This document shows positions 5,620-42,746 of a DNA stretch of 64,000 nt, piece by piece. Numbering within the stretch: position 1 is the stretch's first letter; each line of letters opens with the position of its first letter. Where the stretch lies: the NCBI GenBank assembly GCA_963737065.1, contig CAVTRC010000001.1:992001-1056000 (forward strand), read 5' to 3'. A program made the translations under genes and the position numbers. This DNA is from Candidatus Eremiobacteria bacterium (lineage in GTDB: Bacteria; Vulcanimicrobiota; Vulcanimicrobiia; Vulcanimicrobiales; Vulcanimicrobiaceae). The notes under the pieces are model-generated. The model did no database searches and had not been told where the DNA came from. It saw nothing but the letters and a program-made list of their open reading frames with translations.

Positions 5620-6065
5620 AGCAGACGCCGCTCCGTGAGGTAGCCCGCACGTTCGTACAGTGCGCGCGCGGCTGCATTTTCTTCCGTCACCATCAGCGCC
5701 ATATACGGGAGGCCGCGCTTGCGCGCTTCATCTTCCGCCGCAGCGAGCAGCGCGGCGCCGATACCGCCGCCGCGCCGGCCCCGCTCGACCGCCATGTACG
5801 CGATGAAGCCTTGCTCTTGACCGGTGACTTCATCGGGAAGCGAATCGAGCATCAGAAGAAAGCCAACAGGTTCGCCCGCGTCGTCGGCAATGAGCGCCGC
5901 GTGCTCGCGACTCTGTACGATTCGGACCAGCCGGTCGAAATTCTGAATGACGTCGACTGGATTGGGACGCCGCATCGCTGCAACGCTATCCATCACCGTC
6001 CGTTTTCCAAGACCCTCGATGAACGCGACGTCGTCCACCGTCGCTGAGCGAATCGAGAGCTGCAT
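5604..6065 (-). CDS. GNAT family N-acetyltransferase
   Basis: AV..RRGGGIGAALL and NAAARALYERAGY motifs. Confidence 0.85.
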   Translation of the reverse strand: MQLSIRSATVDDVAFIEGLGKRTVMDSVAAMRRPNPVDVIQNFDRLVRIVQSREHAALIADDAGEPVGFLLMLDSLPDEVTGQEQGFIAYMAVERGRRGGGIGAALLAAAEDEARKRGLPYMALMVTEENAAARALYERAGYLTERRLLCKML

Positions 6066-6070
6066 CGGCG

Positions 6071-6658
6071 CTACGAGCCTCGCGAAGCTCGGCGCGAGCC
6101 CGGGTCGGTGAGCGGTTCGCCCGCTGTGCATTGCGGGCATTGCTCCGGATCGAACGAATCGATCGGAAGCTTCAGCAACGCGTGCGTCGGGACGCCGAAA
6201 TCTGCTTCACCGCGTTCAACGATCAGGCCGACACCGATGACGTGCGCGCCGTACGATCGAACGACGTCCATGACTTCGCGCACCGACATGCCGGTCGTCA
6301 CGACGTCTTCGACGACGAGTACACGATCGGCCGGCGCAAGTTGAAAACTGCGGCGAAGTTTCGCAACGCCGCCGTCTTTTTCTACGAAGATTCCGTTCGT
6401 GCGCAATTGACGCGCAACTTCATAGCCGAGCACGATGCCGCCGACCGCTGCACTGACGACTACGGTTGGATGCGCGTCGCGGAATGCATCCGCAATCCGG
6501 CGCGCGACGTGCTCGACGAGCGGCGGGCTCTCGAGGATTCGAAATTTCTGGATGAACTTGTTGCTGTGGCGGCCGGAACTCAACCGAAAATGACCTTCCA
6601 GCAACGCACCGCGTTCGTGAAGCGCCGAATTGAGGTCGAAATCAGACGTGATCGGCAT
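6071..6658 (-). CDS. pyrE: Orotate phosphoribosyltransferase
   Basis: GHFRLSSGRHS, PRPP-binding VLVVEDVVTTG; in the pyr cluster. Confidence 0.93.
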   Translation of the reverse strand: MPITSDFDLNSALHERGALLEGHFRLSSGRHSNKFIQKFRILESPPLVEHVARRIADAFRDAHPTVVVSAAVGGIVLGYEVARQLRTNGIFVEKDGGVAKLRRSFQLAPADRVLVVEDVVTTGMSVREVMDVVRSYGAHVIGVGLIVERGEADFGVPTHALLKLPIDSFDPEQCPQCTAGEPLTDPGSRRASRGS

Positions 6659-7361
6659 GCGCGTGCATCTCGTCAAGGATCGCGCGCGCGGCTTCAAGCG
6701 GCGCGGGCGCTTGCGTGATGGGGCGTCCCACAACGAGGTAATCCGCGCCCGCTTCGACCGCCATCGCGGGCGTCATCACGCGCTTTTGGTCGCCGTGCGC
6801 GGCGCCGCTCGGACGAATTCCCGGCGTAAGCGTGAGGAAATCGTCGCCGAAGAAGCTCTTCAAATCGCGCGCTTCGTGCGCGCTGCAAACGACGCCGTCG
6901 CATCCCGAGTCACGCGCGAGCGCGGAAAGTCTCGTAACGTTCTGGCCCGGCCCGCCCTGCAGGCCGAGTTCGCCGAGCTCGACCGCGGCGTGGCTCGTGA
7001 GAATCGTCACGGCGAAGATATGCGGAACCGGCAAACCAAGCTCGCTCGCGCGCTCGTCCGCTGCTTCCACGGCGGCGCGCATCATGTCGATTCCGCCCAG
7101 CGCATGAACGTCGACGATGTGCGCGCCGGGACGGACGAGGCCTTTGATGGCGGCGGCGACGGTGCGGGGAATGTCGTGCAGCTTGGCGTCGGCAAAGTAA
7201 CGCACGTCGCGCGCTTCGCAGTAGGAGAATATGCGCTCGGGATATCCGTAGAGCGACTCCATGCCGATTTTGAAGATGACGTCGAGTTCGTAGAGCTCAT
7301 CGATCAACCGTTCGGCTTCGTCGGCATCCGGAACGTCCAATGCAACGATTAGTTGAGCCAT
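6642..7361 (-). CDS. pyrF: Orotidine-5'-phosphate decarboxylase
   Basis: LIVALD, DAKLHDIPRTV, TPGIRP, DQKRVMTP, VVGRPIT. Confidence 0.95.
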   Translation of the reverse strand: MAQLIVALDVPDADEAERLIDELYELDVIFKIGMESLYGYPERIFSYCEARDVRYFADAKLHDIPRTVAAAIKGLVRPGAHIVDVHALGGIDMMRAAVEAADERASELGLPVPHIFAVTILTSHAAVELGELGLQGGPGQNVTRLSALARDSGCDGVVCSAHEARDLKSFFGDDFLTLTPGIRPSGAAHGDQKRVMTPAMAVEAGADYLVVGRPITQAPAPLEAARAILDEMHAHADHV

Positions 7362-21248: not shown

Positions 21249-22688
21249 CTAGGCTAACTGATAGGCGGGCATGGCCATCGCCAAGTATGCCGCACCGCGA
21301 ACGCGTTCTTGAAAGTTTTCGGCGCCGAGAGATTTGAGGGCAGAGGTGGAGACGCCGTTCAAATAGCCGAGCAGTTGCGTGCGCGCGATCTCGGGCGCAT
21401 CACCCTGCAAGAGAACTTCAATGAGCTCCAGGGACGCGCGGTTCGCGTCGACCGGGACCGCTTGCAACCACGACGATTCCGCCATCATCGGCGAATTGCT
21501 CAGTTGCGCGAGAAAGTTCTGTCGAGCGATGATCGTCTGCGATGTGATCCAATTCTGACCTCCGGGCCAACCGGCAACGTTGGGCGGATAAAACAGAATC
21601 TGACCCATTTGGTTGAGCGCACGCGGAGCGGCCGCGTCGATTTGCGAAAGCCCGAACGTCTGATGCGTTCCGACGACGAATTCGACGGGACTCTTTACGA
21701 GCGCGCGATACGCACGCCGCGAGAAAAAGACGTTACTTTGCAAGAGCGTTGACATCACGGGTGCAAGATTGAAATCGTACTTTCGGATCACGGCGGCCAG
21801 TCCATCGACGAGTTGCGGCTCTGGATCGTTGTAGACGAAATAATTAAGCAGCGTGTTGGCCCAAAACTTCGAAGCCGCGGGCTGTTGATAGATTATCGAA
21901 ACGATATCAGCGCCGTCGAAGTTCCCGGAGCGACCGAGGAACGTCTTGATTCCGCTGTCATGAATGCGCGGGTTGCTGACGAATTCGCCTGTTTGGCGGT
22001 TGATCGTCCACCCGGTGAAAGCTCGCGCAGACTGGCGGATGTCTTCTTCCGTGTAATTTCCGTGACCGAGCGTGAACAGTTCCATCAACTCACGCGCGTA
22101 GTTCTCATTCGGATGCGCCTTGTTGTTGCGCGCATTGTCCAAATACAGCAACATCCCGGGATCTTTGCTGACGGCAAGCGTCACGGCACGTAAATTGCCG
22201 AGCGCATTCTCGCGGAAGAGCTGATTTTGACCGTAGACGTACGTGGGCCACACGCCTTTTTGGATCGCGGCTGTTGTAAAGTGACCGTGAAAGAAGAACG
22301 TCATCTTCTCTTGCAGCGGTGCTGGCGTCGTGAGCATGCGATTGAGCCACCACATCTGCAGCGAGACGATCGACTGCCGCGAGTTCTTGCGAATCGTTTT
22401 CAGCGCGTCCATGCGCTGATCTTTAGGCAACCCCACGAGGTTCGCGATGTCGGGCTGGTAGAGGTCGGCGGGCGAAACGAGATTCGACGTGTCGGGGAAG
22501 TGCACGAGCGACTCCACGACGTCGTGCGGGCTGCTGCGTGTCGCGGCGGCGATCGCTTGCGGCGTGCCGCCGAATCCCGCACGGCGTAGCAAGTGCGCCG
22601 CGAGGCGCGAATCCCATTTCCCACCGTACGGAGCAAGCGCGGTTCGCGCATCGAGCGATCCTTCCGGACGATTGAATCCCGAGGCCAT
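21249..22688 (-). CDS. DUF1800 domain protein
   Basis: [48 protein letters not shown]. Confidence 0.9.
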
Positions 22689-22767
22689 ACACTTATTGAA
22701 CGCATCCAGCGACCCGAGCGTCATGAAGGACGGGTTAGGGCCGAGGCTTGCCGAACGAGCGGCCTTC

Positions 22768-24351
22768 GTGAGCCTTCTGGAATCTCGCCTGGACCCGCAA
22801 AGCGAGGCATTTGCGCTGAATGCGCATCGAATGACGACCTTGGTTAGCGAATATCGCGAACGACTCGAAGCCGTTCGCGGGGGTGGTGGCCCGGAAGCAA
22901 CCACAAAGCATCGCAAGCGCGGGAAGCTGACCGCGCGGCAACGGATCGACGAGTTAATTGATCCGGACTCGGATTTCCTCGAGTTCTCGGCGCTCGCCGC
23001 ATACGAGATGTATAAGGGCGACTCGCCTTCTGCGGGAATCGTCACGGGAATCGGTTGCGTCGAAGGCCAGCATTGCGTCATCGTCGCGAACGACGCGACG
23101 GTCAAAGGCGGCACGTACTACCCGATGACCGTCAAAAAGCATTTGCGCGCACAGGAGATCGCAGAGCAAAATCATCTGCCCTGCATCTATCTCGTGGATT
23201 CGGGCGGCGCGTTTCTTCCGTTGCAAGCGGACGTTTTTCCGGATCGCGATCACTTCGGACGCATCTTCTACAATCAAGCGCGCATGTCGGGAAAACGTAT
23301 TCCGCAGATCGCCGCGGTGATGGGATCGTGCACCGCTGGCGGCGCCTACGTGCCGGCTATGAGCGATGAAACCGTCATCGTCAAAGGCACCGGAACGATC
23401 TTTCTCGGCGGTCCGCCGCTCGTGAAAGCAGCGACGGGCGAAGAAGTGACCGCGGAAGAGCTCGGCGGCGCGGACGTTCACACGCGCATTTCAGGTGTTG
23501 CGGATCACTTTGCGAACGACGATCCCCACGCGCTCGGAATTGTTCGCGAAATCGTGCGCAACTTGCATCGCGAGCTGCCGCGCCAGTGGGATCGTGAAGA
23601 ACCACGCCGGCCGAAATACGACCCCCGCGACATCTACGGGATCATTCCAGCAGACAGCCGCACGGGCTACGACGTACGCGAAATCGTCGCGCGTCTCGTG
23701 GACGGTTCGGAATTTCACGAATTCAAAGCGCGTTACGGCACGACGCTCGTGTGCGGGTTCGCGCATATCGAGGGCCATCCGATCGGCATCCTCGCGAACA
23801 ACGGGATTCTTTTTAGCGAAAGCGCGCTCAAGGGCGCGCACTTCATCGAACTGTGTGCGCAGCGCGGCACGCCGCTGCTGTTCTTGCAGAATATCACCGG
23901 CTTCATGGTCGGCAAGCAATATGAGAACGGCGGCATTGCAAAAGACGGAGCAAAACTCGTGACCGCCGTCGCGTGCGCGGAAGTGCCGAAGTTCACGGTC
24001 GTGATCGGCGGCAGTTTCGGTGCGGGCAATTACGGCATGTGCGGACGCGCCTACTCGCCGCGTCAGTTGTGGATGTGGCCGAACGCCCGCATCAGCGTGA
24101 TGGGCGGAGCGCAAGCAGCGAGCGTCTTATCGACCGTGAAGGGGGACATGACGTCCGAAGAAAAGGCCAAATTCGAAGCGCCGATTCTCGAAAAATACGA
24201 GCACGAAGGTAATCCGTACTATTCGACGGCGCGTCTTTGGGACGACGGCATCATCGACCCGCTCGACACGCGCCGGGTCCTCGCAATCGGGCTGGACGCT
24301 GCCGCGCATGCGCCGCAGCCGCCCACGCACTTCGGCATCTTCCGAATGTAG
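22768..24351 (+). CDS. liuB: 3-methylcrotonyl-CoA carboxylase beta (carboxyltransferase) subunit
   Basis: [61 protein letters not shown]. Confidence 0.93.
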
Positions 24352-24365
24352 CGCACAAACGGCGC

Positions 24366-26114
24366 TCATGCCGTGGACGTAGACGCTTTCAACGCCAGCT
24401 CGCGGCGGAGCGATTCCATTTCACGGCGCAGCTGCTCCGCTTCAACATGGTCGAAGGCCGCGCCGGCGGCGTTCACGACGCCTTCGATCGCGCGCATTTC
24501 GTCGCCGTCGAGATCGGCGCCGTTCGTATGTTCGCCGTAGAGCACGATCGCAATGACGCGGCGCCGCGCGAGCACCGGAATCGCGAGAACGGGCCGCGCA
24601 GTACCGCTGGGAAGACTGGAAACCGGCCATCGTATCTCCGAGACTCGCAATGCCGTTTGCTCGGCCTCGACGTGCATGACTAGCGCATCCTGCCGCGAGA
24701 GGATTGAGACGCATTCGGGATCCCAGCCGCACGCGCGTACGCGCGCCCATTCGCCGCTATCGTTCATCTGAAATACCGCCGCCGACCCCAAGCCCAGAAT
24801 AACGAATGGCTCGTCCACCAGGAACTCGTGAATGACGTCCACCCGCTCGGAATGAAGCACCGCACGCGCTGCCTTCTCCAACCGCCGCTGTGCAACGTAC
24901 CGGGCGCGGAACAGCAGACGATCCACGAAGATATCGGCGCGCTTATGCAGATGATCGAGCCAAATTCCGAGCGCAATCGCCGTTACGAATTGCGTGACCG
25001 CTCCAAGTTGCGTTGCCTCGAGCTTCTTGTTGAAGATCCAATCCAACAGTCCAAAAACCAAGATGATAGAGCCGGTGAGGACTGACACGACGACGGCGCG
25101 GCTCAGGACGAACGTGACGTCGACGACGCGGCTTCGCATGATCCCGTAGACGACGAGCACGACGGCGATGCTTTGGACGACATAAAATATTTCGGCGACG
25201 ACGTATGAATCGTAGAACGGTTTCGTACCCAGCCACCACAGAGCGAACGCAGCCGCGCACCAGACGCCGCCGCCAAAAAGCACCCACGCCATCCGGTGCC
25301 GATCTCGCCCGTCGGCAATCACATAGTTGCGAATCAGTGCTGCGAGCGCTGTCGCGACCGCCAGCACTCCGATCGTAAAGCTAACGGCTGTCATGTTCGG
25401 GGCAAGCATACCGAAAAACGCCCACGACCCGACGGTATAGAGCGAAACCGCGATTTGCGCCAGAAACAAGATGAACGCGAAGCGTTGTGCGGGGCGCATC
25501 CATGGTGCGATGCGATTGTTGGGAACGCGGCTCGCAAAGACGATGACGAATATCCACAACGCCTGCAGTGCACTGCAAAACATCTCGCCGCCGACTACCC
25601 ACCAATAGCCGAACGGCGAAAGGTACTCACATATCGGGTTACTGATATTCAGCCCGACGAGCACGGCGAACAAGCTCCACGTCATCGCGCTCGGACGCAC
25701 GATCACGAGCCAGGCTGCGATTGCTAGCGCAATAAGCGCGAAGATCGTGCTGATGAGCTGCTGGATACGATACAGCGATTCCAGACCGATCTCGCGGGTC
25801 GTTACAACTGCCGTCAAATGCCGCGTACCGCGAATCAGCGGTAGCTCCAGCTTCGTACCGGGCGGCGGAAATTTGTACACGACGGGATCGTAGAGCCGGC
25901 GCATGGGCCACAATCGGGCAGCATCGATGCGATCGCCGGGCTTGATGCCGGCGGCTTGCGCTGATCCATTCGGCAAGACGCTCGCAATTCGTAGACGCGA
26001 GTCGGGAGCAATCCCCAGGTGTCCGAGTGGATACCAAATCTCCAGGAGCGGACCGAATCCGAAAAGCGCAATCAGAACCAATGCGACAAACACCGCTATC
26101 GCGCGTCCTGACAT
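24366..26114 (-). CDS. PDZ + multi-pass membrane + C-terminal GAF-like protein with no output domain
   Basis: IASVLPNGSAQAAGIKPGDRI (PDZ), about 9 hydrophobic helices, LAIPV...IAIVLYGEH..GADLD.DE (GAF end), short coil, stop. Confidence 0.65.
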   Translation of the reverse strand: MSGRAIAVFVALVLIALFGFGPLLEIWYPLGHLGIAPDSRLRIASVLPNGSAQAAGIKPGDRIDAARLWPMRRLYDPVVYKFPPPGTKLELPLIRGTRHLTAVVTTREIGLESLYRIQQLISTIFALIALAIAAWLVIVRPSAMTWSLFAVLVGLNISNPICEYLSPFGYWWVVGGEMFCSALQALWIFVIVFASRVPNNRIAPWMRPAQRFAFILFLAQIAVSLYTVGSWAFFGMLAPNMTAVSFTIGVLAVATALAALIRNYVIADGRDRHRMAWVLFGGGVWCAAAFALWWLGTKPFYDSYVVAEIFYVVQSIAVVLVVYGIMRSRVVDVTFVLSRAVVVSVLTGSIILVFGLLDWIFNKKLEATQLGAVTQFVTAIALGIWLDHLHKRADIFVDRLLFRARYVAQRRLEKAARAVLHSERVDVIHEFLVDEPFVILGLGSAAVFQMNDSGEWARVRACGWDPECVSILSRQDALVMHVEAEQTALRVSEIRWPVSSLPSGTARPVLAIPVLARRRVIAIVLYGEHTNGADLDGDEMRAIEGVVNAAGAAFDHVEAEQLRREMESLRRELALKASTSTA

Positions 26115-26225
26115 TACAGGGCCCGGTCTTGAGTCGACGCCGGGATTGTTGTTTCCATCACCCTCGCAGTGCTATCGTTCGAATAGCGCCGCTCTTTCTT
26201 TGCTTGATATTCGGGAGGACAGCTC

Positions 26226-26618
26226 GTGGACAGAAATAACGGTTCGGTCGATGTGGCTCCCGACCCGATTGTACCAACCGCGAGGGCTTTAGTTGACTCA
26301 CCGGTTCTTCGCCTGTGGGGTTATGTCGGTGATTCACTGCGAAGCGGATACATACGGCTCTACGCCGACCTCTCATTCCAGTCATACTACGAGATTCAAA
26401 CGAGCGATGTCCTCGAACGCGTCCGCCTTGGCGACAGAGACGGAGCTTCGGGGTCTCTGTTGACAGTGAAATTCGATGCAATACTGCAAGCGATGGAAAG
26501 CGGACCGGTCGGCGCGGATTGGTTGGCCGGCACAGTGACGGCCGAGAATCTACGCGGGGCAGGCCATGGGCCTCGCGCGTTGGGCCAGCCCCCGACCACG
26601 AAGACGAAATCGCGATAG
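26226..26618 (+). CDS. Putative RiPP precursor with long folded leader and Thr/Ser/Lys tail
   Basis: SD GGAGG + GTG; LWGYVGDS..GYIRLY.DLSF..YYEI...DVL leader; tail GQPPTTKTKSR; first gene before the kinase and HopA1 lyase. Confidence 0.6.
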   Translation: MDRNNGSVDVAPDPIVPTARALVDSPVLRLWGYVGDSLRSGYIRLYADLSFQSYYEIQTSDVLERVRLGDRDGASGSLLTVKFDAILQAMESGPVGADWLAGTVTAENLRGAGHGPRALGQPPTTKTKSR

Positions 26619-26636
26619 ACGGCCGCTCTCTCTCCA

Positions 26637-27695
26637 ATGGACGCCAAGTCGGCGGTTCAATGCCTCACGCGCTTCGGTGTTTTCGACGGTTGCCTTCCAG
26701 ACCACATCACGGTAACGTCCGCGAGCGGGCGCAACGATAACACGCTCGTACGTTGCGATGGGCGCGCCGCGTACCTGATCAAAGCCGCGTATCCGGCCGA
26801 CCCGGCTGCAGAGAGCGCACTCAAACGAGAGGCCGACTTCTGTGCCTTCTGCGCGGAGCATAGCCGCGCGCTCGACCTCGACGACCTCATACCGCGACTT
26901 GCGGCTATGGACGCGAATCGAAGCGTCTATGTCTACGACGTATTCCAGTCGGCTCTTCCACTTTCGTCAAGGTACGACAATCTGCCCGTTTGGTATAAAG
27001 TTGGCGTGAAACTCGCCGTACTTCAGCGCCGCTGCTCCGAGTTGGTGACCGGTGATTGCGCGCTCGGGCTATCGTCGGAACCTCCATCAATTCTGTCGAT
27101 GCACCGTCCGACGCCGCAGGATGTTTCGGAATTGACTGCGGCAACATGGGATCTGCTCTCGATCGTGCAGCGGCGCCCCGAATTTTGCGAACATCTCGAC
27201 GGCATTCGCGATACATGGACGGCGACAACGTTCACTCATGGCGATATTCGGGCCGCAAACGTGCTCATATCCAAGGCGCTCGATGAGCCACGCGTGCATT
27301 TCGTCGATTTCGAAACTGCCGCCTTCGGAGATCCCGCATGGGACGTCGCCGGTGCGCTCCAAGACATCGCCTTTGCCTGGATTCAATCGATGACCGCAAA
27401 TCCGGACCTCGCGCAGATGATCCGCTCCGCAAGGCGGCCCTTCGCTCAGCTTCAGTCGACGGCGCGTGCGCTCGTACGCGGATATCTTCACGCAAACGAC
27501 GCTACGAGTAGCGAGCGCGACGAGTTCATCGAGCGTGCTACGTGTTTCTCCGCGGCACGGCTGCTTCAATCGGCGTACGAATGTACGGCTGAGCTGGACG
27601 GCTTGCCCGCGCACGCAGTGCTTCTGCTCCAGCTCGCGGAAAATATCGCGGCCAATCCGCGACGCGCTGCGGAAGGCCTTTATGGAATCGCCTGA
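26637..27695 (+). CDS. APH-family phosphotransferase (LanK/TvaC-like peptide kinase)
   Basis: YLIK, KRE, HGDIRAAN (Brenner motif), VDFE, GDPAWDVAG. Confidence 0.8.
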   Translation: MDAKSAVQCLTRFGVFDGCLPDHITVTSASGRNDNTLVRCDGRAAYLIKAAYPADPAAESALKREADFCAFCAEHSRALDLDDLIPRLAAMDANRSVYVYDVFQSALPLSSRYDNLPVWYKVGVKLAVLQRRCSELVTGDCALGLSSEPPSILSMHRPTPQDVSELTAATWDLLSIVQRRPEFCEHLDGIRDTWTATTFTHGDIRAANVLISKALDEPRVHFVDFETAAFGDPAWDVAGALQDIAFAWIQSMTANPDLAQMIRSARRPFAQLQSTARALVRGYLHANDATSSERDEFIERATCFSAARLLQSAYECTAELDGLPAHAVLLLQLAENIAANPRRAAEGLYGIA

Positions 27696-28557
27696 CGTGC
27701 GCGCGATCGCCCACGATCGAACGTTGAAGCCGGGCAGCGACGACATCGCTGCGATCCTCTATGAAAGGGCCTACTGCCGCCTGCGGAATCCGTACGCCGC
27801 ACGGTCCTCACCGGACGAAAGGCCGCGCTTCATCGCCGAACTTTCGCTCGCGAATCGCGGAACCGGCCACCGGCAGACGGGTTGGACGCTCCTCGACACG
27901 GATGGCGATCGTTGCGTCGTTGCGAAAAACGGCGTGCGCTTTTATGCGAACCGGGGCGATGTGCGCACAACCGCGCAGAACGCATGTCGTGTTCGCATCG
28001 AAAAGGAGATGCGAGCGCTGATTCCGGGCTTCTATTGCGCCATCGGCGACGCAGACGGCAGCGACGATCCCGACGTCCCAATGTTGCGCCTCTACTGGAA
28101 TTTGCAGGCCGGCGCAGCAACGAAATACATCGCACTAATTACTGGCCAATGTAATCGCCTAGGCCTACCGTTCCGTACGAAAGTTCTCGCCGACCCAACA
28201 GCCTACCGGCGCGCCGATGCCGGTGTACTATACATAGAGCGAACCGACGCAGCAGCGTTCGCTTCAACGGTCCGCGACGTTTACACAGAAATTGCACCGC
28301 TTCTGCACCACGACGTTCCGATGTTTACCAAACGCATCGCTCCCGGTCTCGCATGGGCCGAAGATCCGGGCGGCGCGCGGAGTTTCGGCGAAACACGCTG
28401 TAGCGCAATCGCCGATGGATTGATCGCAGCCGGCGACTCGGCAAATGAAAACGAGCGCTATCGGCTTATGTGCGACGCGCTCGAGAACGCGCGCATCGAC
28501 ATACGCGAACCGTATCTGTGCGGCGGCCGCAGTGCCGCGTACGCGTGCTTTTTCTAG
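27682..28557 (+). CDS. HopA1-family protein (LanY/TvaD-like phospho-Ser/Thr lyase)
   Basis: PGFY, LRLYWNL, PFRTKVL, RADAGVLY, VPMFTK.IAPGLAWAEDP, SFGETRC; overlaps the kinase end. Confidence 0.8.
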   Translation: MESPDVRAIAHDRTLKPGSDDIAAILYERAYCRLRNPYAARSSPDERPRFIAELSLANRGTGHRQTGWTLLDTDGDRCVVAKNGVRFYANRGDVRTTAQNACRVRIEKEMRALIPGFYCAIGDADGSDDPDVPMLRLYWNLQAGAATKYIALITGQCNRLGLPFRTKVLADPTAYRRADAGVLYIERTDAAAFASTVRDVYTEIAPLLHHDVPMFTKRIAPGLAWAEDPGGARSFGETRCSAIADGLIAAGDSANENERYRLMCDALENARIDIREPYLCGGRSAAYACFF

Positions 28558-29267
28558 ATCTGCGGAAACGCCTTGGGATACAGCTTGTAGTAGTTTGGCG
28601 TTTCCAGCCACTTGCCGTTCGCATACTTCAGCGTTGCAGAAGCCTTCGGTTTGGTCGGGCAGCACAACGGCGCGTTTGCGCTGTAGTACGGTCCGCTCAA
28701 CAGTAACGACGCGCCATCACCGTTTTTGACGAGCTTCGCGTCGAGGTCGCAGGCGTTCTGTACGGTGACCGCCGGCACGACCTTATTGCTCTTCGGATCG
28801 AACGTGAAAACGGTCAGGCCGGCCATCCCGCAATCGGCACCGGTTTGATGCGTCTGCACGACGAGCTGCTCGGCGGCATCGCCCATCAGCGGCGCGGCGC
28901 CCACGATACCGGCGGTTTGACGCGGGAACCATATGCTCGCGCCGCTGGCCTTCGAAAGTTTGTCGAGCGGGCCGCCGTCGCGTGGCGATTGATAGCGCAA
29001 GCGATACGTGGTGTTATCGAGTTGATAGATCGAGACGTACCATTGATAGAACGTCTCACCGCTCCCCGTACCAACGGCCTTTTTACTGATGACGCCGCGC
29101 CATTGAGCGTGCATCGCTTCACCGGCCAAGTATGCCAGTTGACTTGCGACGACAGTTCCCGGCGGCGCGGGCGCAAATGTGACGTGCGCCGGCTCTTCCG
29201 CGGCAAGAGGCTGCGAAACGAACAGGGTGAATGCGGCGATCATTATCGCGCGCGTGAATCGATGCAT
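28554..29267 (-). CDS. Secreted hypothetical protein
   Basis: Signal peptide ending PLAA; C-terminal YYSANAPLCCP resembles LppP/LprE-like ends. Confidence 0.65.
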   Translation of the reverse strand: MHRFTRAIMIAAFTLFVSQPLAAEEPAHVTFAPAPPGTVVASQLAYLAGEAMHAQWRGVISKKAVGTGSGETFYQWYVSIYQLDNTTYRLRYQSPRDGGPLDKLSKASGASIWFPRQTAGIVGAAPLMGDAAEQLVVQTHQTGADCGMAGLTVFTFDPKSNKVVPAVTVQNACDLDAKLVKNGDGASLLLSGPYYSANAPLCCPTKPKASATLKYANGKWLETPNYYKLYPKAFPQI

Positions 29268-29346
29268 GTTAGCTTCTCCACTCCCAAGTAACGCGTGTGT
29301 AGAGCGTGGAGGAAACGCATTCCTGCGGATGATTACCGTGGACCGG

Positions 29347-30087
29347 CTAAATTCCGGCGTACCATTCGTATCCCTGATCTTCCCAATACCCGCCGGCTCC
29401 CGAATAAATAGTCGCGAACGAACCGACGAGTTCGATTCGCTCGATCCACTTGGCGCTTTTATACCCGAGTTGCGTCGGGATGCGCAAGCGAACCGGCGCG
29501 CCGTGGTCGGGGTCGAGCGGCGCATCGTTCAATCGTAGTGCCAGCAACGTCTGCGGATGCATCGCTTGATGAAGATCGAGGCTCTCGTAGTAGTGCACAT
29601 TCTGATCGTCTCTATCCATGCAATAAAACACGACGTACCGCGCATCCGCGCGCGGATGAACGGCGGCGAGAAAATCGCGTAAGCGCACGCCGCTCCATTT
29701 ACCGATGACGCTCCATCCCTCGACGCAGTCATGGCGCGTTATTTGCGTCGTCTGCTTCATCGCGTGTAATTCTCCGAGCGAGAACGTCCGTCGCCGTTCC
29801 ACGGCGCCGTCGACGATCAGCCGGTACGGTTCGAACCGGTGCGCGACGAGTTGCTCGTAATGCGAATCGCTCGGCGTAGGCAAGCCATTTACGCGAAAGT
29901 TGCGATCGACGTCTTTGTCAGTGTACTCCCGTGCCATGCCGTGCGTACCGATCAGCGCGTGATTGAGCTTTTCCGCCGAGTCGAGAACGGAGTGGAATTT
30001 CGGGTTGTTATTCAACGCGGTCGCGACCGGCGAACAGGCGGTAAGCGCGGACGAAACCGACGCCGCGATGAAAAGGCGGCGGTTCAC
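29347..30087 (-). CDS. Molybdopterin-dependent oxidoreductase (sulfite oxidase/MsrP-like), Tat-exported
   Basis: NRRLF Tat motif, HDCVEGWS, HPQTLLA, HGAPVRLRIP, GYKSAKW, GGYWEDQGY. Confidence 0.88.
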   Translation of the reverse strand: MNRRLFIAASVSSALTACSPVATALNNNPKFHSVLDSAEKLNHALIGTHGMAREYTDKDVDRNFRVNGLPTPSDSHYEQLVAHRFEPYRLIVDGAVERRRTFSLGELHAMKQTTQITRHDCVEGWSVIGKWSGVRLRDFLAAVHPRADARYVVFYCMDRDDQNVHYYESLDLHQAMHPQTLLALRLNDAPLDPDHGAPVRLRIPTQLGYKSAKWIERIELVGSFATIYSGAGGYWEDQGYEWYAGI

Positions 30088-30881
30088 GGTCCCACCCCGT
30101 CTTCTTTGCCCAAACGATACCATCCGGTGATCATCGAGTTCATTTGATTGGTGACGCCTTGCGTGAGTACTTGAAACATGTGAATCGCAAAAAACGCGAG
30201 TAGCGCCAGCATCCCCGCGAAGTGCCAAAGCCGCGCGAATTGCCGTCCGCCGAAGAACCACGTGAGCGGTTGCGCGACCGCGTCGATGCCGGGTGAGAGC
30301 GCGAGACCCGTAAGGACAACCAGCGGAGCTACAACGAATCCGATCGCCGTATAAGAAGCCTTCTGCAGCGGATTGTACACACCGTGCGGCGGCGCTTCTT
30401 TGCGCAGATGGAAATAATAGGCTTGCATCGGCCAGAGTTTCGGCACGTCGCTCGGGCGCAAGATCATCTCTCGCAAATTCCCTTTGATGGCCGACGAGAT
30501 CAACCATGCTACCCAGCACGCCGCGGCTATCCAAGCGAAGAACAGATGCCACCGCCGGCCGTCGGCGAGAGCCTGATACGATGGAATGGTGATCCAGCCG
30601 GGAAACGCGCGCGCGCCGCGGCTGCCCATGCCGTCGTCGGTGTAGCCGAGCCAGCCGGTCGTCGTGACCGTGTGGCCGAAAATGGTCGCCGTCCCGACGC
30701 CTTGCGCGGGAGAAGCGATGGAGACCACCCGCCGCGCGGGATTCGATTTGTCCGATGCATCGAGATACGGCGCGGCGTTGAAAATCTGCAGTCCGCTCGA
30801 CACCAGCACGCCGAACGCAATCGCCCAAAGCCAGTGGCTTAGCCGCGTCGTAACCGCGTACCGATAAATCGTGCGTCCCAT
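30084..30881 (-). CDS. Cytochrome b/b6 domain membrane protein
   Basis: RLSHW, SGLQIFNA, RRWHLFFAW, YNPLQK, ARLWHF, IHMFQV heme ligands. Confidence 0.85.
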   Translation of the reverse strand: MGRTIYRYAVTTRLSHWLWAIAFGVLVSSGLQIFNAAPYLDASDKSNPARRVVSIASPAQGVGTATIFGHTVTTTGWLGYTDDGMGSRGARAFPGWITIPSYQALADGRRWHLFFAWIAAACWVAWLISSAIKGNLREMILRPSDVPKLWPMQAYYFHLRKEAPPHGVYNPLQKASYTAIGFVVAPLVVLTGLALSPGIDAVAQPLTWFFGGRQFARLWHFAGMLALLAFFAIHMFQVLTQGVTNQMNSMITGWYRLGKEDGVGP

Positions 30882-30943
30882 CTGCATACAAATATAACGC
30901 AGGCCAGGCACGAGCGGATGATAAGCCGAACGACACCGGGCCC

Positions 30944-31720
30944 ATGTCTACAGTGACGGTGTCCATACAAGCGCACGTAGCGCGCGTCACGCTCGCGCGG
31001 CCGGATGTTCGGAACGCATTCAACGCCGAAGTGATTCGCGAACTTCGCGACGGGTTCGCGCAGCTCGCGGACGATCCCGAGGTACGCGCCATCGTCCTTG
31101 CCGGCGAGGGCCCGTCCTTCTGCGGCGGAGCCGACATCAACTGGATGCGCGGTGCGCTCGACTTGAGTTACGACGAGAACCTTGCCGATGCCGAAGCGAT
31201 GAGTTTGATGTTTCGCGCGATCGATCGTTGCGCGAAACCCGTCATTGGGCGCATTCATGGTGCGGCGCTCGGCGGAGGCTCCGGACTCACGGCCGTCTGC
31301 GACATTGCGATTGCAAGCGACGACGCGCTTTTCGGGTTCACCGAAGTGAAACTCGGGATCATTCCGGCGGTGATTTCACCGTTTGTACTGGCGAAGATCG
31401 GTCCGTCGCACGCGCGCGCGTTATTTGTGACCGGCGAACGCTTCGACGCCGAGCGCGCCCGGCACATCGGGCTCGTGCATCGCGTCGTTCCGATCGACCG
31501 CCTTGACGCGGCAATCGACGAAACGCTCGCGCAACTCATGACGAGCGCCCCGCAAGCAGTCGCGGCCGCGAAAGCGCTGATTCCACGCGTGATGACCGCG
31601 TCGTACGATGAGACGCTCGGCATCACGAGCAGCGCGATCGCCCGTCAGCGAACGTTGCCCGAAGGACAAGAAGGCCTGCGCGCATTCCTCGAACGCCGGA
31701 AAGCGGCGTTCGCGCAATGA
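30944..31720 (+). CDS. liuC: Methylglutaconyl-CoA hydratase (enoyl-CoA hydratase family)
   Basis: RPDVRNAF, FCGGADINWM, ALGGG, EVKLGIIPAVISP, EGQEG; liu context. Confidence 0.85.
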   Translation: MSTVTVSIQAHVARVTLARPDVRNAFNAEVIRELRDGFAQLADDPEVRAIVLAGEGPSFCGGADINWMRGALDLSYDENLADAEAMSLMFRAIDRCAKPVIGRIHGAALGGGSGLTAVCDIAIASDDALFGFTEVKLGIIPAVISPFVLAKIGPSHARALFVTGERFDAERARHIGLVHRVVPIDRLDAAIDETLAQLMTSAPQAVAAAKALIPRVMTASYDETLGITSSAIARQRTLPEGQEGLRAFLERRKAAFAQ

Positions 31721-33618
31721 TTCAGCGTCTGCTGATCGCCAACCGCGGCGAGATCGCCGTCCGGGTTGCGCGGGGTGCGCGCGAAATGGGAATCGCGCCG
31801 CTCGGCATCTATTCGGACGCGGACGCAAACGCATATCATCTCACCGTAATGGACGATGCGCGCTGCGTCGGTCCCGCACCGGCGACCCAATCGTATCTCG
31901 ACATCGACGCAATCATTGCCGCAGCAATCAGCATGAACGCCGACGCCGTGCATCCCGGTTACGGCTTTCTTTCCGAACGTGCGGCGTTCGCGAAAGCAGT
32001 GCGCGATGCAGGGATGATTTTCGTCGGACCCTCTGCAGAAGCGATGGCAGCGATGGGCAGCAAGATCGAGGCGAAGCGCCGCGTCCGCGAATTCGACGTG
32101 CCGACGGTTCCCGGATACGACGGTGACGACCAGTCATCGGAACGCTTGCGCACGGAAGCGCAACGTATCGGATTTCCGGTACTCATCAAAGCGAGCGCGG
32201 GCGGCGGCGGACGCGGCATGCGCGTCGTCGACGCGATCGCTCAGTTCGACGAAGCACTCGCAGCCGCGAAACGTGAAGCGCTCGCGGCTTTCGGGGACGA
32301 TGCGGTGCTGCTAGAACGCTATTTGCGCGAACCGCGCCACATCGAGTTTCAAGTGCTCGCGGATTCGTTCGGAACGACGATACATCTCGGCGAGCGGGAA
32401 TGCTCGATCCAGCGCCGCCATCAGAAGATCGTCGAGGAAGCGCCGTCGGTTGCGCTCTCTCCGCAGCTACGCGCGGAAATGGGCGCGGCGGCCGTGCGCG
32501 CCGCACGATCCGTCGGATACGAGAACGCAGGCACGTGCGAGTTTATGCTCGATGGTGACGGCTCGTATTACTTCCTCGAGATGAACACGCGGCTGCAAGT
32601 CGAGCATCCGGTCACGGAATTGGTGTACGGCGTCGATCTCGTACATTGGCAACTGCGAATCGCGAACGGCGAGCGCCTTACGCTCTCGCAAGAAGACGTC
32701 CGCCCGCGCGGCTGGGCAATCGAAACGCGTATTTATGCTGAAGATCCGGCGAACCATATGCTTCCGTCGACGGGAACGATCACCGAATGGAAGCCGCCGG
32801 AAGGGCCCGGTATCCGCGTCGATTCGGGCGTGCAAACGGGAAGCGACGTCAGCGTCTACTACGATCCGATGCTCGCAAAGCTTATCGTGTACGGAACGGA
32901 ACGCGCACACGCAATCGCGCGGCTACAGCAAGCGCTCGAGCATTTCCGCATCGGCGGCGTTCGCGCGAACGTGCCGTTGCTGTCGTGGATCGCGCGCGAC
33001 GAGTGGTTTATCGAAGGACGCACGGCGACGAACTTCTTGGCCGAACGGCTGGATGAATCGATATTCTCGCGCAAGGAGGTCCCGCGCGACGCGGCCGTCG
33101 CCGTTGCAGCCACAATGCTTGCGAACGGCGACATTCCGTGGCGCATGGGCGGGGTCGGCATGCCGATTCGTCTGACGTCGGACGGCGCGACGTTCATCGC
33201 GGCAGCCGATGCAACGAACGATCCGAACGTTTTCCGGTTGAGTGGAGATTTCGACGGTGAGATCGACGTTCGCAAAGTTCAAGGAAACGTCGAGCGAAGC
33301 GCCCGCGAGTGGATCGCACATCTGGAGCACCGCGCGTATCGCTTCGAACGTATAGCGCCCCCCTCGGCGCACGGCGCCAGCGGTGTCGCCGGCGCAGCCG
33401 GCGCGGACGGCAGCGTGACCGCGCCGATGCCCGGCAAGATCGTAAAAATCGCCGTGCAGGAGGGCGACCGTGTCGCGGACCGCGCGCTCTTGCTCGTGCT
33501 CGAAGCGATGAAGATGGAACACCGCATCGAGTCCTCCCTCGATGCGACGGTTCGCGCGGTCCTCGTAAAAGAAGGCGATATCGTTCCGGGTGGCGCGCCG
33601 CTAATGGAACTCGCCTGA
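31717..33618 (+). CDS. liuD: 3-methylcrotonyl-CoA carboxylase alpha (biotin carboxylase/BCCP) subunit
   Basis: IANRGEIA, HPGYGFLSE, GGGGRGMR, EMNTRLQVEHPVTE, EAMKME biotin site. Confidence 0.92.
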   Translation: MIQRLLIANRGEIAVRVARGAREMGIAPLGIYSDADANAYHLTVMDDARCVGPAPATQSYLDIDAIIAAAISMNADAVHPGYGFLSERAAFAKAVRDAGMIFVGPSAEAMAAMGSKIEAKRRVREFDVPTVPGYDGDDQSSERLRTEAQRIGFPVLIKASAGGGGRGMRVVDAIAQFDEALAAAKREALAAFGDDAVLLERYLREPRHIEFQVLADSFGTTIHLGERECSIQRRHQKIVEEAPSVALSPQLRAEMGAAAVRAARSVGYENAGTCEFMLDGDGSYYFLEMNTRLQVEHPVTELVYGVDLVHWQLRIANGERLTLSQEDVRPRGWAIETRIYAEDPANHMLPSTGTITEWKPPEGPGIRVDSGVQTGSDVSVYYDPMLAKLIVYGTERAHAIARLQQALEHFRIGGVRANVPLLSWIARDEWFIEGRTATNFLAERLDESIFSRKEVPRDAAVAVAATMLANGDIPWRMGGVGMPIRLTSDGATFIAAADATNDPNVFRLSGDFDGEIDVRKVQGNVERSAREWIAHLEHRAYRFERIAPPSAHGASGVAGAAGADGSVTAPMPGKIVKIAVQEGDRVADRALLLVLEAMKMEHRIESSLDATVRAVLVKEGDIVPGGAPLMELA

Positions 33619-33642
33619 CTCGCGATGCGGTCATAAGAGCGT

Positions 33643-34575
33643 ATGGCACTGCCGAAATTCGTCAAACTCGTCGAGATGGGACCGCGCGACGGCCTTCAAA
33701 ACGAACACGCCGTGATCTCGACCGACGACAAGGTGCGCTACATCGATCTTCTTTCCGAGACCGGCTTGCAGTGGATTGAAGCGACATCGTTCGTCAGTCC
33801 CAAGGCTATTCCGCAGCTCGCGGATGCGAGCGATGTTTTTTCGCGGATTCGCAAAGCACACGGCGTGCGCTATCCGGTGCTCGTGCCGAACATGAAGGGC
33901 TACGAGCGCGCGAAAGCTGCGGGCGTCGATGCAGTTGCCGTCTTCACCGCAGCGTCGGAGACGTTCACGAAGCGCAATATTAACATGACGATCGACGAGT
34001 CGCTCGAAACGTTTCGCGACGTCGTGCGGGCTGCGAGAAACGACGGCATGTGCGTGCGCGGCTACGTCTCAACGGCATTCGGTTCACCGTTCGGCGACCA
34101 CGTAACGCCCGCTATGGTCGTTGACGTAAGCGTGAAGCTGATGGAAATGGGCTGCGACGAGTTGTCGATAGGCGATACGATTGGTATCGGCGTGCCGAGC
34201 CAGCTCGACGACTTGATTCCCGCGCTTGCGAAGAAAATTTCGCTCGATCAGATAGCATTCCATTTTCATGACACGCGCGGTACTGCGCTCGCGAATATCT
34301 ATGCCTCGCTGCAGCACGGCGTTCATATCTTCGATAGTTCGGCCGGCGGCCTCGGCGGATGTCCGTACGCACCGGGCGCAACGGGAAACGTGGGAACGGA
34401 GGACGTCATCTACTTCCTGCACTCGATGAAGGTCGACACCGGTGTGGACCTGGGCAAAGTACGAGCCGCATCACGCTTCATCCGCGGCGTTCTCGATCAC
34501 GATCTAACGAGCAAAGCGTTCCAAGCGTTCGAGGCAGCCGATGCGCGCCTGGCCGCGACAACGACCGCTCCGTGA
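33643..34575 (+). CDS. liuE: Hydroxymethylglutaryl-CoA lyase
   Basis: GPRDGLQNE, TSFVSPK, HFHDTRG, GLGGCPYAPGATGN. Confidence 0.93.
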   Translation: MALPKFVKLVEMGPRDGLQNEHAVISTDDKVRYIDLLSETGLQWIEATSFVSPKAIPQLADASDVFSRIRKAHGVRYPVLVPNMKGYERAKAAGVDAVAVFTAASETFTKRNINMTIDESLETFRDVVRAARNDGMCVRGYVSTAFGSPFGDHVTPAMVVDVSVKLMEMGCDELSIGDTIGIGVPSQLDDLIPALAKKISLDQIAFHFHDTRGTALANIYASLQHGVHIFDSSAGGLGGCPYAPGATGNVGTEDVIYFLHSMKVDTGVDLGKVRAASRFIRGVLDHDLTSKAFQAFEAADARLAATTTAP

Positions 34576-41126: not shown

Positions 41127-41935
41127 TCGTCGCCGCCACGGCGGCGGCGATACCGTTAAACGGCACGTTCGCATTACTGGGAGGCACGCAACACGTTACC
41201 GCGCACGCAACCGTGTCGCATCCGCATCCCAACGACTTCACGGTGGACATCGTTCAATCGACGAGCGAGGGTAGCCCGCCGATTCGCTCCTACACGCTCG
41301 ACATGACGAAGTTCATGCATGTCGTTGCCATCAGCGACGACTTCCGTCAATTCATGCACACGCATCCGACGTTCGATCCCAAGACGGGTGACTTCCATTT
41401 GACAATGTCGCTCGATCCGGCACACGCGTACAACGTATACGCCGATTCGGAGCCGAAAGGCATGGGCGAGCAAGTCTTCCGTTTCACGATTCCCTCCAGC
41501 ACTAACCCGTCGGCTACGACGCAGCCGCTTCCGCCGAGCACGCCGTCACCGGATACGATCGACGCAGGCTCGTACGCCGTCACGCTCGCAAAGACGACGC
41601 TACCCGCACAATCCGCACAGTCGATTGCGCTCGACATTACGAAGAACCGATCTGCAGCAAACGATCTGCAGCCGTACCTCGGCGCCGCGGGTCATGCCGT
41701 GTTCGTCGACACGGCGACGCTCGCGTACGTTCACGTACATCCGATGGTACGCGGTGCGGACGGCTCGATGAACATGCGCGGCATGGATATGAACCAACCG
41801 CCGAGCGGTCCGGCGGCCGGACCACATCTTATGCTTCAGGTGCCCGGGCTGCCGGTCGGAACGTATAAGCTCTGGTTCCAATTCCGAGCCGGCGGATCGT
41901 TGTACGTCGCGCCGTTTACGCTCGCCGTGCGCTAG
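41093..41935 (+). CDS. Secreted His/Met-rich putative heavy-metal-binding protein
   Basis: Signal-like N-terminus; MHVV..FMHTHP, LQPYLGAAGH, YVHVHPM, Met-rich loop, YKLWFQF. Confidence 0.65.
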   Translation: MESLARTAAGLIVAATAAAIPLNGTFALLGGTQHVTAHATVSHPHPNDFTVDIVQSTSEGSPPIRSYTLDMTKFMHVVAISDDFRQFMHTHPTFDPKTGDFHLTMSLDPAHAYNVYADSEPKGMGEQVFRFTIPSSTNPSATTQPLPPSTPSPDTIDAGSYAVTLAKTTLPAQSAQSIALDITKNRSAANDLQPYLGAAGHAVFVDTATLAYVHVHPMVRGADGSMNMRGMDMNQPPSGPAAGPHLMLQVPGLPVGTYKLWFQFRAGGSLYVAPFTLAVR

Positions 41936-42746
41936 CCGAACGCGCTTGTTTGAACGCAACGGCGAGAAAGAAGAGCACCGTCGCAACGAGCACGATCGTC
42001 GCGCCGCTCGAACTTTTCAAGAAGTACGAGAGATACAGTCCGCCGACGGTGCTCAGCACGCCGAGCAGCGCGGAGAGCAGCATCATCGGTGCGAAGCGCG
42101 ACGTCATCTGATACGCCGCCGCAGCCGGGGTGACGAGTAACGCCGCGACGAGCACGATACCGACCGCCTGCAACGCGACGACGATCGTAAGCGCGAGCAT
42201 CACGAGCAGCACGTACTCAATCGCCGGGGAATGCATACCGCTTGCATCGGCTACGACCGGGTCGAACGTCGTATAGAGCAACGGCCGAAAGAGCACGATC
42301 GTCGCAACGGCGACCGCGATACCGAGTGCAAGAATGAGCAGCAGATCCGCGATACCGACGCCCAAGATATCGCCGAATAAAAAACTCTGCAGGTCGACGG
42401 CGTAGTTCTTCTGCTGACTCATCAAGAATACGCCAAGCGCAAATGCGCCGGTGAAAAGCACGCCGATCGTCGTATCGAGCGAGATGCGCCCGCGCCGATG
42501 AACGAACCCGATGCCGAGCGCGGTCACGACCGCAACGACCGCCGCTCCAATGTAGTACTCCAGCCCGCGCAAATACGCGATCACGATGCCGGCGAACGAG
42601 GCGTGCGCGATCCCGTCACCGATAAACGACAGTTTGCGAAGCACCACGTACGTCCCCATGACGGAACACAGCAATCCGACCGCGATCGCTTCGATGAACG
42701 CCCGCTGCATGAACTCGAATTGAAACGGTGCGAGAACGGCGTCCAT
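41916..42746 (-). CDS. znuB: Zn/Mn ABC transporter permease
   Basis: FMQRA, GDGIAHASFAG, LFGDIL, VGIVLVAALLVTPAAAA. Confidence 0.88.
   Translation of the reverse strand: MDAVLAPFQFEFMQRAFIEAIAVGLLCSVMGTYVVLRKLSFIGDGIAHASFAGIVIAYLRGLEYYIGAAVVAVVTALGIGFVHRRGRISLDTTIGVLFTGAFALGVFLMSQQKNYAVDLQSFLFGDILGVGIADLLLILALGIAVAVATIVLFRPLLYTTFDPVVADASGMHSPAIEYVLLVMLALTIVVALQAVGIVLVAALLVTPAAAAYQMTSRFAPMMLLSALLGVLSTVGGLYLSYFLKSSSGATIVLVATVLFFLAVAFKQARSASARRA

Follow-up and report, generated by a model that had tools for sequence, protein, structure and literature searches.

Comparison with Described Kinase–Lyase Systems

Class Vb lanthipeptides are made by three enzymes, LanK, LanY and LanC, as described for mSmoA, which is produced with SmoK, SmoY and SmoC (PMC12291118, PMC12328550). 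A related set of genes was found in a 64-kb window of the genome of a soil bacterium, Candidatus Eremiobacteria (the window being the whole stretch of DNA that was analysed, 64,000 nt of contig CAVTRC010000001.1), where three co-oriented genes at positions 26226-28557 encode a small precursor protein, a LanK-type kinase and a LanY-type lyase of the HopA1 family. The locus is similar to class Vb in that a stand-alone APH-fold kinase and a HopA1-type lyase lie side by side after the precursor gene, and 72 of its 79 nearest relatives possess the full three-enzyme set. It differs from class Vb in having neither LanC nor Cys, so that no (methyl)lanthionine ((Me)Lan) is possible, and in its folded leader of ~115 residues, which was not found described for class V in the open-access literature searched by enzyme and class terms. 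By its gene content and its place among these relatives, the locus is best described as derived from a class Vb-type lanthipeptide system by secondary loss of LanC; without Cys and cyclase it is by definition not a lanthipeptide system, although it descends from class Vb and would work in a similar manner. Probably, if only by a small measure, the kinase and lyase are still a functional pair, which would dehydrate Thr and Ser of the C-terminal PPTTKTKSR of the precursor to dehydrobutyrine (Dhb) and dehydroalanine (Dha) without thioether rings.

Class Va and thioamitide systems, such as LxmK/LxmY, CaoK/CaoY and TvaC/TvaD (PMC9486802, PMC8153245, PMC11186320), form the second group for comparison, and a structure of LxmKY has been solved (9DK1; PMC12141560). 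The locus would share with them the kinase–lyase heterodimer chemistry; LanC is absent from both, and its lyase matches LxmY (9dk1_B, E 2e-9). However, class Va depends on LanD and LanX and on a C-terminal Cys for aminovinyl-methylcysteine (AviMeCys), whereas the locus has a single kinase-like gene and no Cys, and on the tree it descends from LanC-bearing and not from Va-type relatives. None of LanX, LanD and YcaO/TfuA was present among the 26 neighbouring open reading frames (ORFs), and no genome-wide search was made for LanD and YcaO. Eyles et al. (2021) reported that 20% of HopA1-like proteins are near or fused to LanC and might represent an uncharacterised lanthionine synthetase (PMC8153245). 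The parent family here is of this kind, with 32 same-frame and 40 separate LanC genes, but the Eyles study sought short peptides, and the clade of the locus is without LanC.

Two further groups of peptides made by ribosomes and then modified post-translationally (RiPPs) are relevant. Linaridins and other linear dehydrated RiPPs contain Dhb without lanthionine, and the dehydration enzymes of linaridins are unrelated to LanK and LanY. Precursors of the NHLP and Nif11 types possess long conserved leaders with variable, sometimes multiple cores, but the precursor leader of the locus has no match in Pfam or NCBIfam, the NHLP and Nif11 models included.

Organisation of the Locus

A preliminary description of this DNA, made from its letters alone, had proposed a co-oriented precursor–kinase–HopA1 unit whose leader is folded and whose tail lacks Cys, and the ORFs, the hidden Markov model (HMM) matches and an AlphaFold2 (AF2) model agree with it. 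The elements of the unit are as follows:

26213..26219, + strand: Shine–Dalgarno-like GGGAGGA, 6 nt before the GTG of the precursor gene, read from the sequence
26226..26618, + strand: precursor gene, 130 aa, 0 Cys, GTG start, member of an unnamed large-leader precursor family
26304..26498, + strand: leader beta-domain, residues 27-91, six-stranded and small barrel-like, AF2 predicted local distance difference test (pLDDT) mostly >90
26502..26570, + strand: leader helix, residues 93-115, GPVGADWLAGTVTAENLRGAGHG, predicted kinase-docking element
26589..26615, + strand: putative core PPTTKTKSR at residues 122-130, with T124, T125, T127 and S129 as candidates for dehydration
26637..27695, + strand: LanK-type APH-fold Ser/Thr kinase, 352 aa, by Pfam APH and the LxmK HMM
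27682..28557, + strand: LanY-type HopA1-family phospho-Ser/Thr lyase, 291 aa, by Pfam HopA1 and the LxmY alignment

The claim of a strong ribosome-binding site is borne out by the GGGAGGA before the precursor GTG. The precursor stop and the kinase start are separated by 18 nt, while the kinase and HopA1 genes overlap by 14 nt. The longest HopA1 frame opens at GTG 27466, and the ATG start at 27682 is backed by GGAAGG 7 nt upstream and by the start of the orthologue in G003, a genome of the same genus. The small ORF is a real gene, since its orthologue in G003 is 85% identical, pN/pS (ratio of nonsynonymous to synonymous differences per site) is 0.20, and it matches the leader-family HMM at 3e-31. 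A 41-aa peptide would result from an internal start at Met90, but this start was discarded, as the 89 codons upstream are conserved and part of the family domain.

The 130-aa precursor ends with GQPPTTKTKSR, and Cys for (Me)Lan formation is absent from all 130 residues and from the G003 orthologue. In the AF2 model (84-row alignment, mean pLDDT of 80.7), residues 27-91 form six strands and residues 97-110 a helix, while the tail is unstructured. Foldseek gave no match to the leader fold at E<=1e-3, and the best score of an exhaustive VIA-align search was Z 3.5, to Hfq/SH3-like small barrels, which is below kinship level; the resemblance is read as a common arrangement and not as kinship. ESM Atlas clusters annotated as pyrophosphatase, at 0.90, were taken as chance because recognition was low (1807).

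A Large-Leader Precursor Family

A word-index protein search with the small ORF returned only itself and one orthologue. An exhaustive HMMER (phmmer) search of 1.84 billion representatives at E<=1e-3 gave 142 related proteins of 113-1200 residues, each matched at its N-terminal part. The leader domain of ~115 residues is conserved at the N-terminus across this family, and the precursor meets its conserved columns (G32, Y33, G35, S37, R44-L45-Y46, Y54, E56, A97, L100 and G102). No Pfam family above cut-off was present in any of the 29 relatives scanned. The folded leader is not peculiar to this copy; it is the normal leader of the 142 relatives and is present at 53 of 79 related loci.

The regions after the leader are quite different from one protein to another. 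Cys and Thr/Ser typically abound in the tails, and the leader domains contain almost no Cys. Counting the precursor itself, 135 of the 143 proteins have Cys after the leader domain, up to 104 in a single protein; the precursor and its relative P0002 belong to the remaining 8. Some relatives have repeated tails, such as P0069 with four exact copies of a 33-residue unit, and family cores span from 9 residues to >1200 residues of repeated two-Cys units. A large conserved leader joined to variable, often multiple cores is the signature of a RiPP precursor family. G000 (the genome holding the window, 95% complete), G003 and G005, a third genome of the genus, have exactly one leader-family member each.

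Neither this leader domain nor giant multi-core precursors were found described in the open-access literature searched by enzyme and class terms, and the leader motifs VRLY, IRLY and YYEI are absent from two supplementary files of PMC8153245. The family is thus apparently an undescribed precursor family for LanK/LanY/LanC systems. It is widespread, occurring in many bacterial phyla and in Nitrososphaeraceae archaea, and could serve as a new bait for RiPP genome mining. With precursors that reach ~1350 residues and without a linked protease or exporter, the parent family might conceivably produce lanthionine-stapled proteins and not antibiotics.

Giant leader-family precursors lie beside LanK/LanY/LanC in Thermoanaerobaculia (L010:2453-6508, L016:2457-6629 and L018:2994-6536). 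The open frame of L010 has 1352 codons with 131 Cys, 182 Thr and 44 'PT.C' motifs, and is built of dozens of units like C-L-T-V-V-T-A-N-P-T-D-C with Gly runs between them. A few leader-family ORFs next to LanC (L011:6041-6511 and L025:5888-6313) have a tail of 20 residues with 0 Cys, or none, and are possibly artefacts of ORF calling; a second precursor gene lies 7 kb further downstream in L011.

Related Loci and Their Cyclase

Related loci were collected with an alignment of the 12 closest of 59 HopA1 homologues, as a search with the single HopA1 protein returned nothing. This query gave 79 loci from one-genome-per-species contigs, which are the best 80 of 113 confirmed matches. The kinase cluster is present at 78 of the 79 loci. 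A leader-family ORF, recognised by an HMM built from 143 sequences, is present at 53 loci and stands directly upstream of the kinase on the same strand at 51, while the upstream sequence is too short (<1700 nt) to tell at 5. A LanC-like ORF follows HopA1 in the same frame at 32 loci and as a separate gene at 40; the downstream sequence is too short (<900 nt) to tell at another 5, and only two loci are without LanC despite 8 kb of downstream DNA (L008, from a Vulcanimicrobiota genome of the same genus as G000, and L086, from Phytohabitans). LanC after or fused to HopA1 in 72 of 79 loci is the layout of class Vb lanthipeptide systems. All six downstream ORFs scanned matched LANC_like (E 2e-49 to 4e-62) as well as the C-terminal cyclase part of the LanM model (237-278 bits), and the remaining 66 LanC ORFs were assigned by BLAST clustering only.

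The idea of a system that is minimal by design does not hold, in view of the LanC genes at these 72 loci and the tail Cys in 135 of the 143 precursors. Apart from these genes, no neighbour is common to most of the 79 loci, and a recurrent protease or exporter was not found across them. Large Ser/Thr protein kinases with TPR or WD40 repeats flank 17 of the loci, and STAND/BTAD/LuxR-type regulators flank 9. HopA1–LanC fusions are also present in ammonia-oxidising archaea (Nitrososphaeraceae loci L041, L060 and L067), and the mixture of many phyla among the rows of the HopA1 tree suggests frequent horizontal transfer.

Loss of LanC and Cys

The preliminary description had noted the absence of a cyclase, and LanC was indeed not found in the 64-kb window or in the 95%-complete genome. 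A family-specific query for LanC (PF05147) had no match in G000 or G003, and in G005 it gave one stretch only, of 15 bits and E 0.0066. A tblastn search with six LanC proteins gave nothing at E<=0.1 in any of the 64-kb window, L006, L008, L086 and L087. A null result with the Pfam LANC_like model in G000 was discarded as evidence, because its control was positive in 0 of 14 genomes. It had also been considered that a LanC elsewhere in the genome might serve a different precursor; neither such a LanC nor a second leader-family precursor was found in G000.

The HopA1 gene is present in three of the seven genomes of the genus (G000, G003 and G005) and was found in none of 54 further relatives that were searched. 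In G003, these three genes occupy the same site. The lineage of G005 has the operon at another site; metagenome contig L087 carries it whole, and in G005 it is divided between two contigs. In the HopA1 tree, the four LanC-less rows form one clade with a support of 100 and a stem length of 0.87. This clade lies inside an 18-row group (support 86), of which the other 14 rows comprise 13 with LanC and 1 cut by the contig end. Because the LanC-less clade nests among LanC-bearing loci, LanC was lost secondarily, and two losses suffice for the whole tree. The loss of LanC is old, since the LanC-less operon is common to the G000/G003 and G005/L087 lineages at dS (synonymous divergence) >1.5.

The precursor tails record a further step. 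L087 and the related protein P0062 have two C-x4-P-P-S-T-(H/Y) units followed by a Cys-less PPTT(K/R) terminus. The tails of G000 and G003 are without this two-Cys segment of ~25 residues, and only GQPPTT(K/R)TKSR is left; the terminal PPTT(K/R) is the one element common to all four precursors of the clade. LanC was thus lost before Cys, since the LanC-less L087 and P0062 still have two Cys. The locus represents a natural experiment in which a lanthipeptide dehydratase pair is left after ring formation has gone.

Purifying Selection

G000 and G003 were compared by NG86 dN/dS (ratio of nonsynonymous to synonymous divergence) and by a separate pN/pS count with a Fisher test. The precursor gave dN/dS 0.15 and pN/pS 0.20 (p 2e-12), with dN/dS of 0.14 for the leader (codons 2-110), and for the tail (codons 111-130) dN/dS was 0.18 and pN/pS 0.26 (p 0.015). 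Values for HopA1 were 0.16 and 0.21 (p 2e-21), and those for the kinase were 0.35 and 0.41 (p 4e-10), while three flanking genes had dN/dS of 0.06-0.13. Against L087, synonymous sites are saturated (dS 1.5-2.7), and all frames are intact. Since pN/pS is 0.20-0.41 and the catalytic residues are intact, the locus does not look decayed. Of the two parts of the earlier suggestion that the locus might be a decayed class V system, the homologues with LanC and Cys-rich cores were found, and relaxed selection in this copy was not. Purifying selection on all three genes argues that installation of dehydro amino acids alone is useful.

Kinase, Lyase and Predicted Leader Docking

The HMM searches that had been proposed for the two enzymes gave 4.9e-9 for the kinase with Pfam APH (PF01636) and 1.2e-37 for the lyase with Pfam HopA1 (PF17914). 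The name HopA1 refers to the founding member only, which is a type III secretion effector, and the context of the gene here is a kinase–lyase operon. G000 has one HopA1 gene and one LxmK-like kinase.

The kinase matches the NCBIfam LxmK model from end to end (kinase residues 23-345 on model positions 18-342 of 347), at 63 bits against an equivalog cut-off of 315. It possesses the motifs HGDIRAAN and DFE, and the catalytic residues K49, E65, H201, D203, N208, D224 and E226 (HxDxxxxN, DxE) are kept. Of 39 strongly family-conserved columns, 32 are kept and 7 differ. W225, which is Trp in 35 of 35 other kinases, is replaced by Phe in all three LanC-less kinases (G000, G003 and L087), where Y69 (29 of 35) is also replaced by Cys. 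W280 (34 of 35) is Val in G000 and G003 and Leu in L087, and H130 (His in 35 of 35) is Gln in G000 and G003 only.

In the lyase, all 23 columns invariant among 33 homologues are kept. R136, K167, R177 and Y184 are aligned with LxmY, with the same spacing as R187, K219, R229 and Y236 of CaoY. Mutagenesis of CaoY has shown that R187, K219 and R229 matter for elimination, and Y236 is conserved (PMC9486802).

Modelling of the leader with the kinase–lyase complex had been suggested, and the model places it on the kinase. The three proteins were folded together, each with its own alignment and with the precursor as the scored partner, and the predicted interface score (ipSAE) was 0.82, compared with 0.00 for the best of three controls. 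Among solved complexes 116 of 157 score this high, and so do 2 of 215 mismatched pairs; the calibration is a rough one, as own alignments were used. Contact agreement between runs was at least 64%, and the pLDDT of the partner was at least 71. In the predicted interface, residues 93-115 of the precursor meet residues 249-270 and 322-348 of the kinase; it includes the family-conserved A97, L100 and G102 of the precursor and L331, Q332, N336 and L348 of the kinase. This predicted docking is consistent with the report that the CaoA leader contacts CaoK hydrophobically (PMC9486802).

Proposed Function and Alternatives

According to these results, the 130-aa protein would be the substrate of the pair. 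Its amphipathic helix at residues 93-115 would dock on the C-terminal lobe of the kinase, which might then phosphorylate Thr and Ser of the disordered PPTTKTKSR, and the HopA1-type lyase, paired with the kinase, would eliminate the phosphate to give Dhb and Dha. The modification of the tail and its sites are inferred. No thioether rings are expected, since neither cyclase nor Cys is left, and the product would be a short linear electrophilic tail of dehydro amino acids; such a linear poly-dehydro tail is our best guess. In practical terms, the precursor is a compact Cys-free substrate for LanK/LanY enzymology.

Several points weigh against tail dehydration by a functional pair. The kinase is the least constrained of the three genes (0.35-0.41), and its replacements at invariant positions could reflect altered or weakened activity. 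The contacts placed with confidence in the complex model include no precursor residue beyond 115. The tail of G000 and G003 resembles what is left of a longer core with two Cys, which suits progressive reduction as well as a new function, and the patchy distribution of the operon (3 of 7 genus genomes) is as expected of a dispensable accessory. The selection figures rest on one close pair, G000 and G003, the comparison with L087 being saturated. The tree of 82 HopA1 rows was made by a quick IQ-TREE run with support from the Shimodaira–Hasegawa-like approximate likelihood ratio test (SH-aLRT) only, and was drawn by midpoint without an outgroup. The absence of LanC has to be read as 'not found' in a genome that is 95% complete. 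Finally, no RNA sequencing run with the locus is listed, and only two soil DNA runs contain 0.05-0.06 of its words.

An alternative, which we regard as unlikely, is that the pair has been repurposed, so that kinase and lyase act mainly elsewhere or stop at phosphorylation, and the small protein works through its leader helix as an adaptor, a regulator or a decoy and is not the precursor of a product. The clade-specific changes at otherwise invariant kinase positions and the long HopA1 stem branch (0.87) would suit such a change, as would the confident placement of the leader helix alone, and not of the tail, on the kinase. Moreover, the gene co-inherited with the operon encodes a sensor-like PDZ/GAF membrane protein, there is no linked protease or exporter, and proteins are known targets of HopA1 and OspF-type lyases (PMC9486802). 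However, a stable phospho-state is improbable because the catalytic residues of the lyase are kept, the tail is constrained with PPTT common to the clade, and an evident substrate is encoded at the same gene position in 51 of the 79 relatives.

Rather less likely still is a decaying remnant, in which the operon has been useless since LanC was lost, the short Cys-free tail reflects late erosion, and the genes persist for lack of time. Nearly all relatives with LanC and Cys-bearing cores, the loss in G000 and G003 of the ~25-residue two-Cys segment kept in L087 and P0062, and the absence of the operon from 4 of the 7 genus genomes agree with erosion, as do the highest dN/dS in the kinase and its loss of invariant Trp and His. 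Nevertheless, the three frames are intact in three lineages with saturated synonymous sites (dS 1.5-2.7), and pN/pS of 0.20-0.41 is far below 1 (p 2e-21 to 4e-10). The 23 invariant lyase columns, all catalytic residues of the kinase, the terminal PPTT(K/R), the gene overlap and the Shine–Dalgarno sites have also been kept, none of which suits a remnant.

A cross-linked product, with Dhb/Dha captured by Lys126 or Lys128, by a small-molecule thiol or by Cys of another protein, is the least probable of these alternatives. In TTKTKS, two Lys alternate with the Thr/Ser residues, the LanC-less sister lineage retains two Cys at the fixed spacing C-x4-PPST, and spontaneous cyclase-independent Michael additions occur in class V pathways (PMC11186320, PMC12291118), but Lys126 is Arg in G003, and no enzyme for Lys addition is among the 26 linked ORFs scanned. 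In general, Dhb reacts poorly as an electrophile with amines unless the addition is catalysed.

A Co-Inherited Membrane Gene and the Genomic Surroundings

In addition to the three genes of the operon, the locus has two immediate neighbours:

24366..26114, - strand: divergent membrane protein gene, 582 aa, co-inherited with the operon
28554-29525, - strand: convergent gene, with a 4-nt overlap with the HopA1 stop

Orthologues of the membrane gene adjoin the operon in both genomic contexts, with 92% identity in G003 and ~60% in G005, L087 and L091, while G001, G002, G004 and G006 have only paralogues of ~30% identity. Because the membrane gene adjoins the operon in both contexts, the unit of inheritance comprises four genes, and membrane gene and operon together make up a ~4.2-kb cassette at 24366-28557. 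In the operon-less G001 and G006 (L099 and L100), the cassette site between the carboxyltransferase and the convergent gene is taken by a multi-transmembrane ORF of ~295 residues. This co-inheritance suggests a functional link between the membrane protein and the operon. No homologue of the membrane gene was found near the other 79 loci.

By hydropathy, Pfam and an AF2 model, the membrane protein has an N-terminal transmembrane segment, a weak PDZ-like stretch, ~7-8 transmembrane helices and a long helix, and ends with a GAF-like domain. The Pfam matches are below cut-off (PDZ 1.4e-3 and GAF_3 2.2e-3), and its AF2 model has a pLDDT of 62.8, with only residues ~410-570 confident. The PDZ fold typically binds C-terminal tails. 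It is conceivable, though about as doubtful as the decay of the operon, that the product is a folded protein which keeps its beta-barrel leader and carries an electrophilic Dhb/Dha tail that is read or captured by the PDZ-like domain of the membrane protein, so that the four genes would form a signalling or covalent-capture module derived from a lanthipeptide pathway. The membrane protein is one of a family of paralogues (~30% identity), and genomes of the genus have up to 7 matches each.

No RiPP tailoring enzyme, protease or peptide exporter was found among the 26 ORFs scanned at 11.6-42.7 kb. A double-glycine-type export signal in the 'RGAG' stretch of the precursor was considered and dropped, because no C39 peptidase was found in G000, by a search whose control was positive in 7 of 14 genomes. 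A sigma-70 promoter scan gave 0 sites, and terminator-like sites were at chance level.

The genes at 11.6-42.7 kb include a leucine-catabolism set (both methylcrotonyl-CoA carboxylase subunits, enoyl-CoA hydratase and 3-hydroxy-3-methylglutaryl-CoA (HMG-CoA) lyase), a YedYZ-like pair, DUF1800/DUF1501 genes, a two-component system and others, with one ABC-3 permease at 41916-42746. The leucine-catabolism genes lie at 22489-24351 and 29347-34575 (carboxyltransferase, enoyl-CoA hydratase, biotin carboxylase and HMG-CoA lyase), and are split by the cassette, a secreted-looking protein and the YedYZ-like molybdopterin oxidoreductase/cytochrome b pair. In G001, the enoyl-CoA hydratase (L099:5910-6684) is in two adjoining pieces in different frames (5910-6293 and 6295-6684), which might be due to a frameshift or an assembly error.

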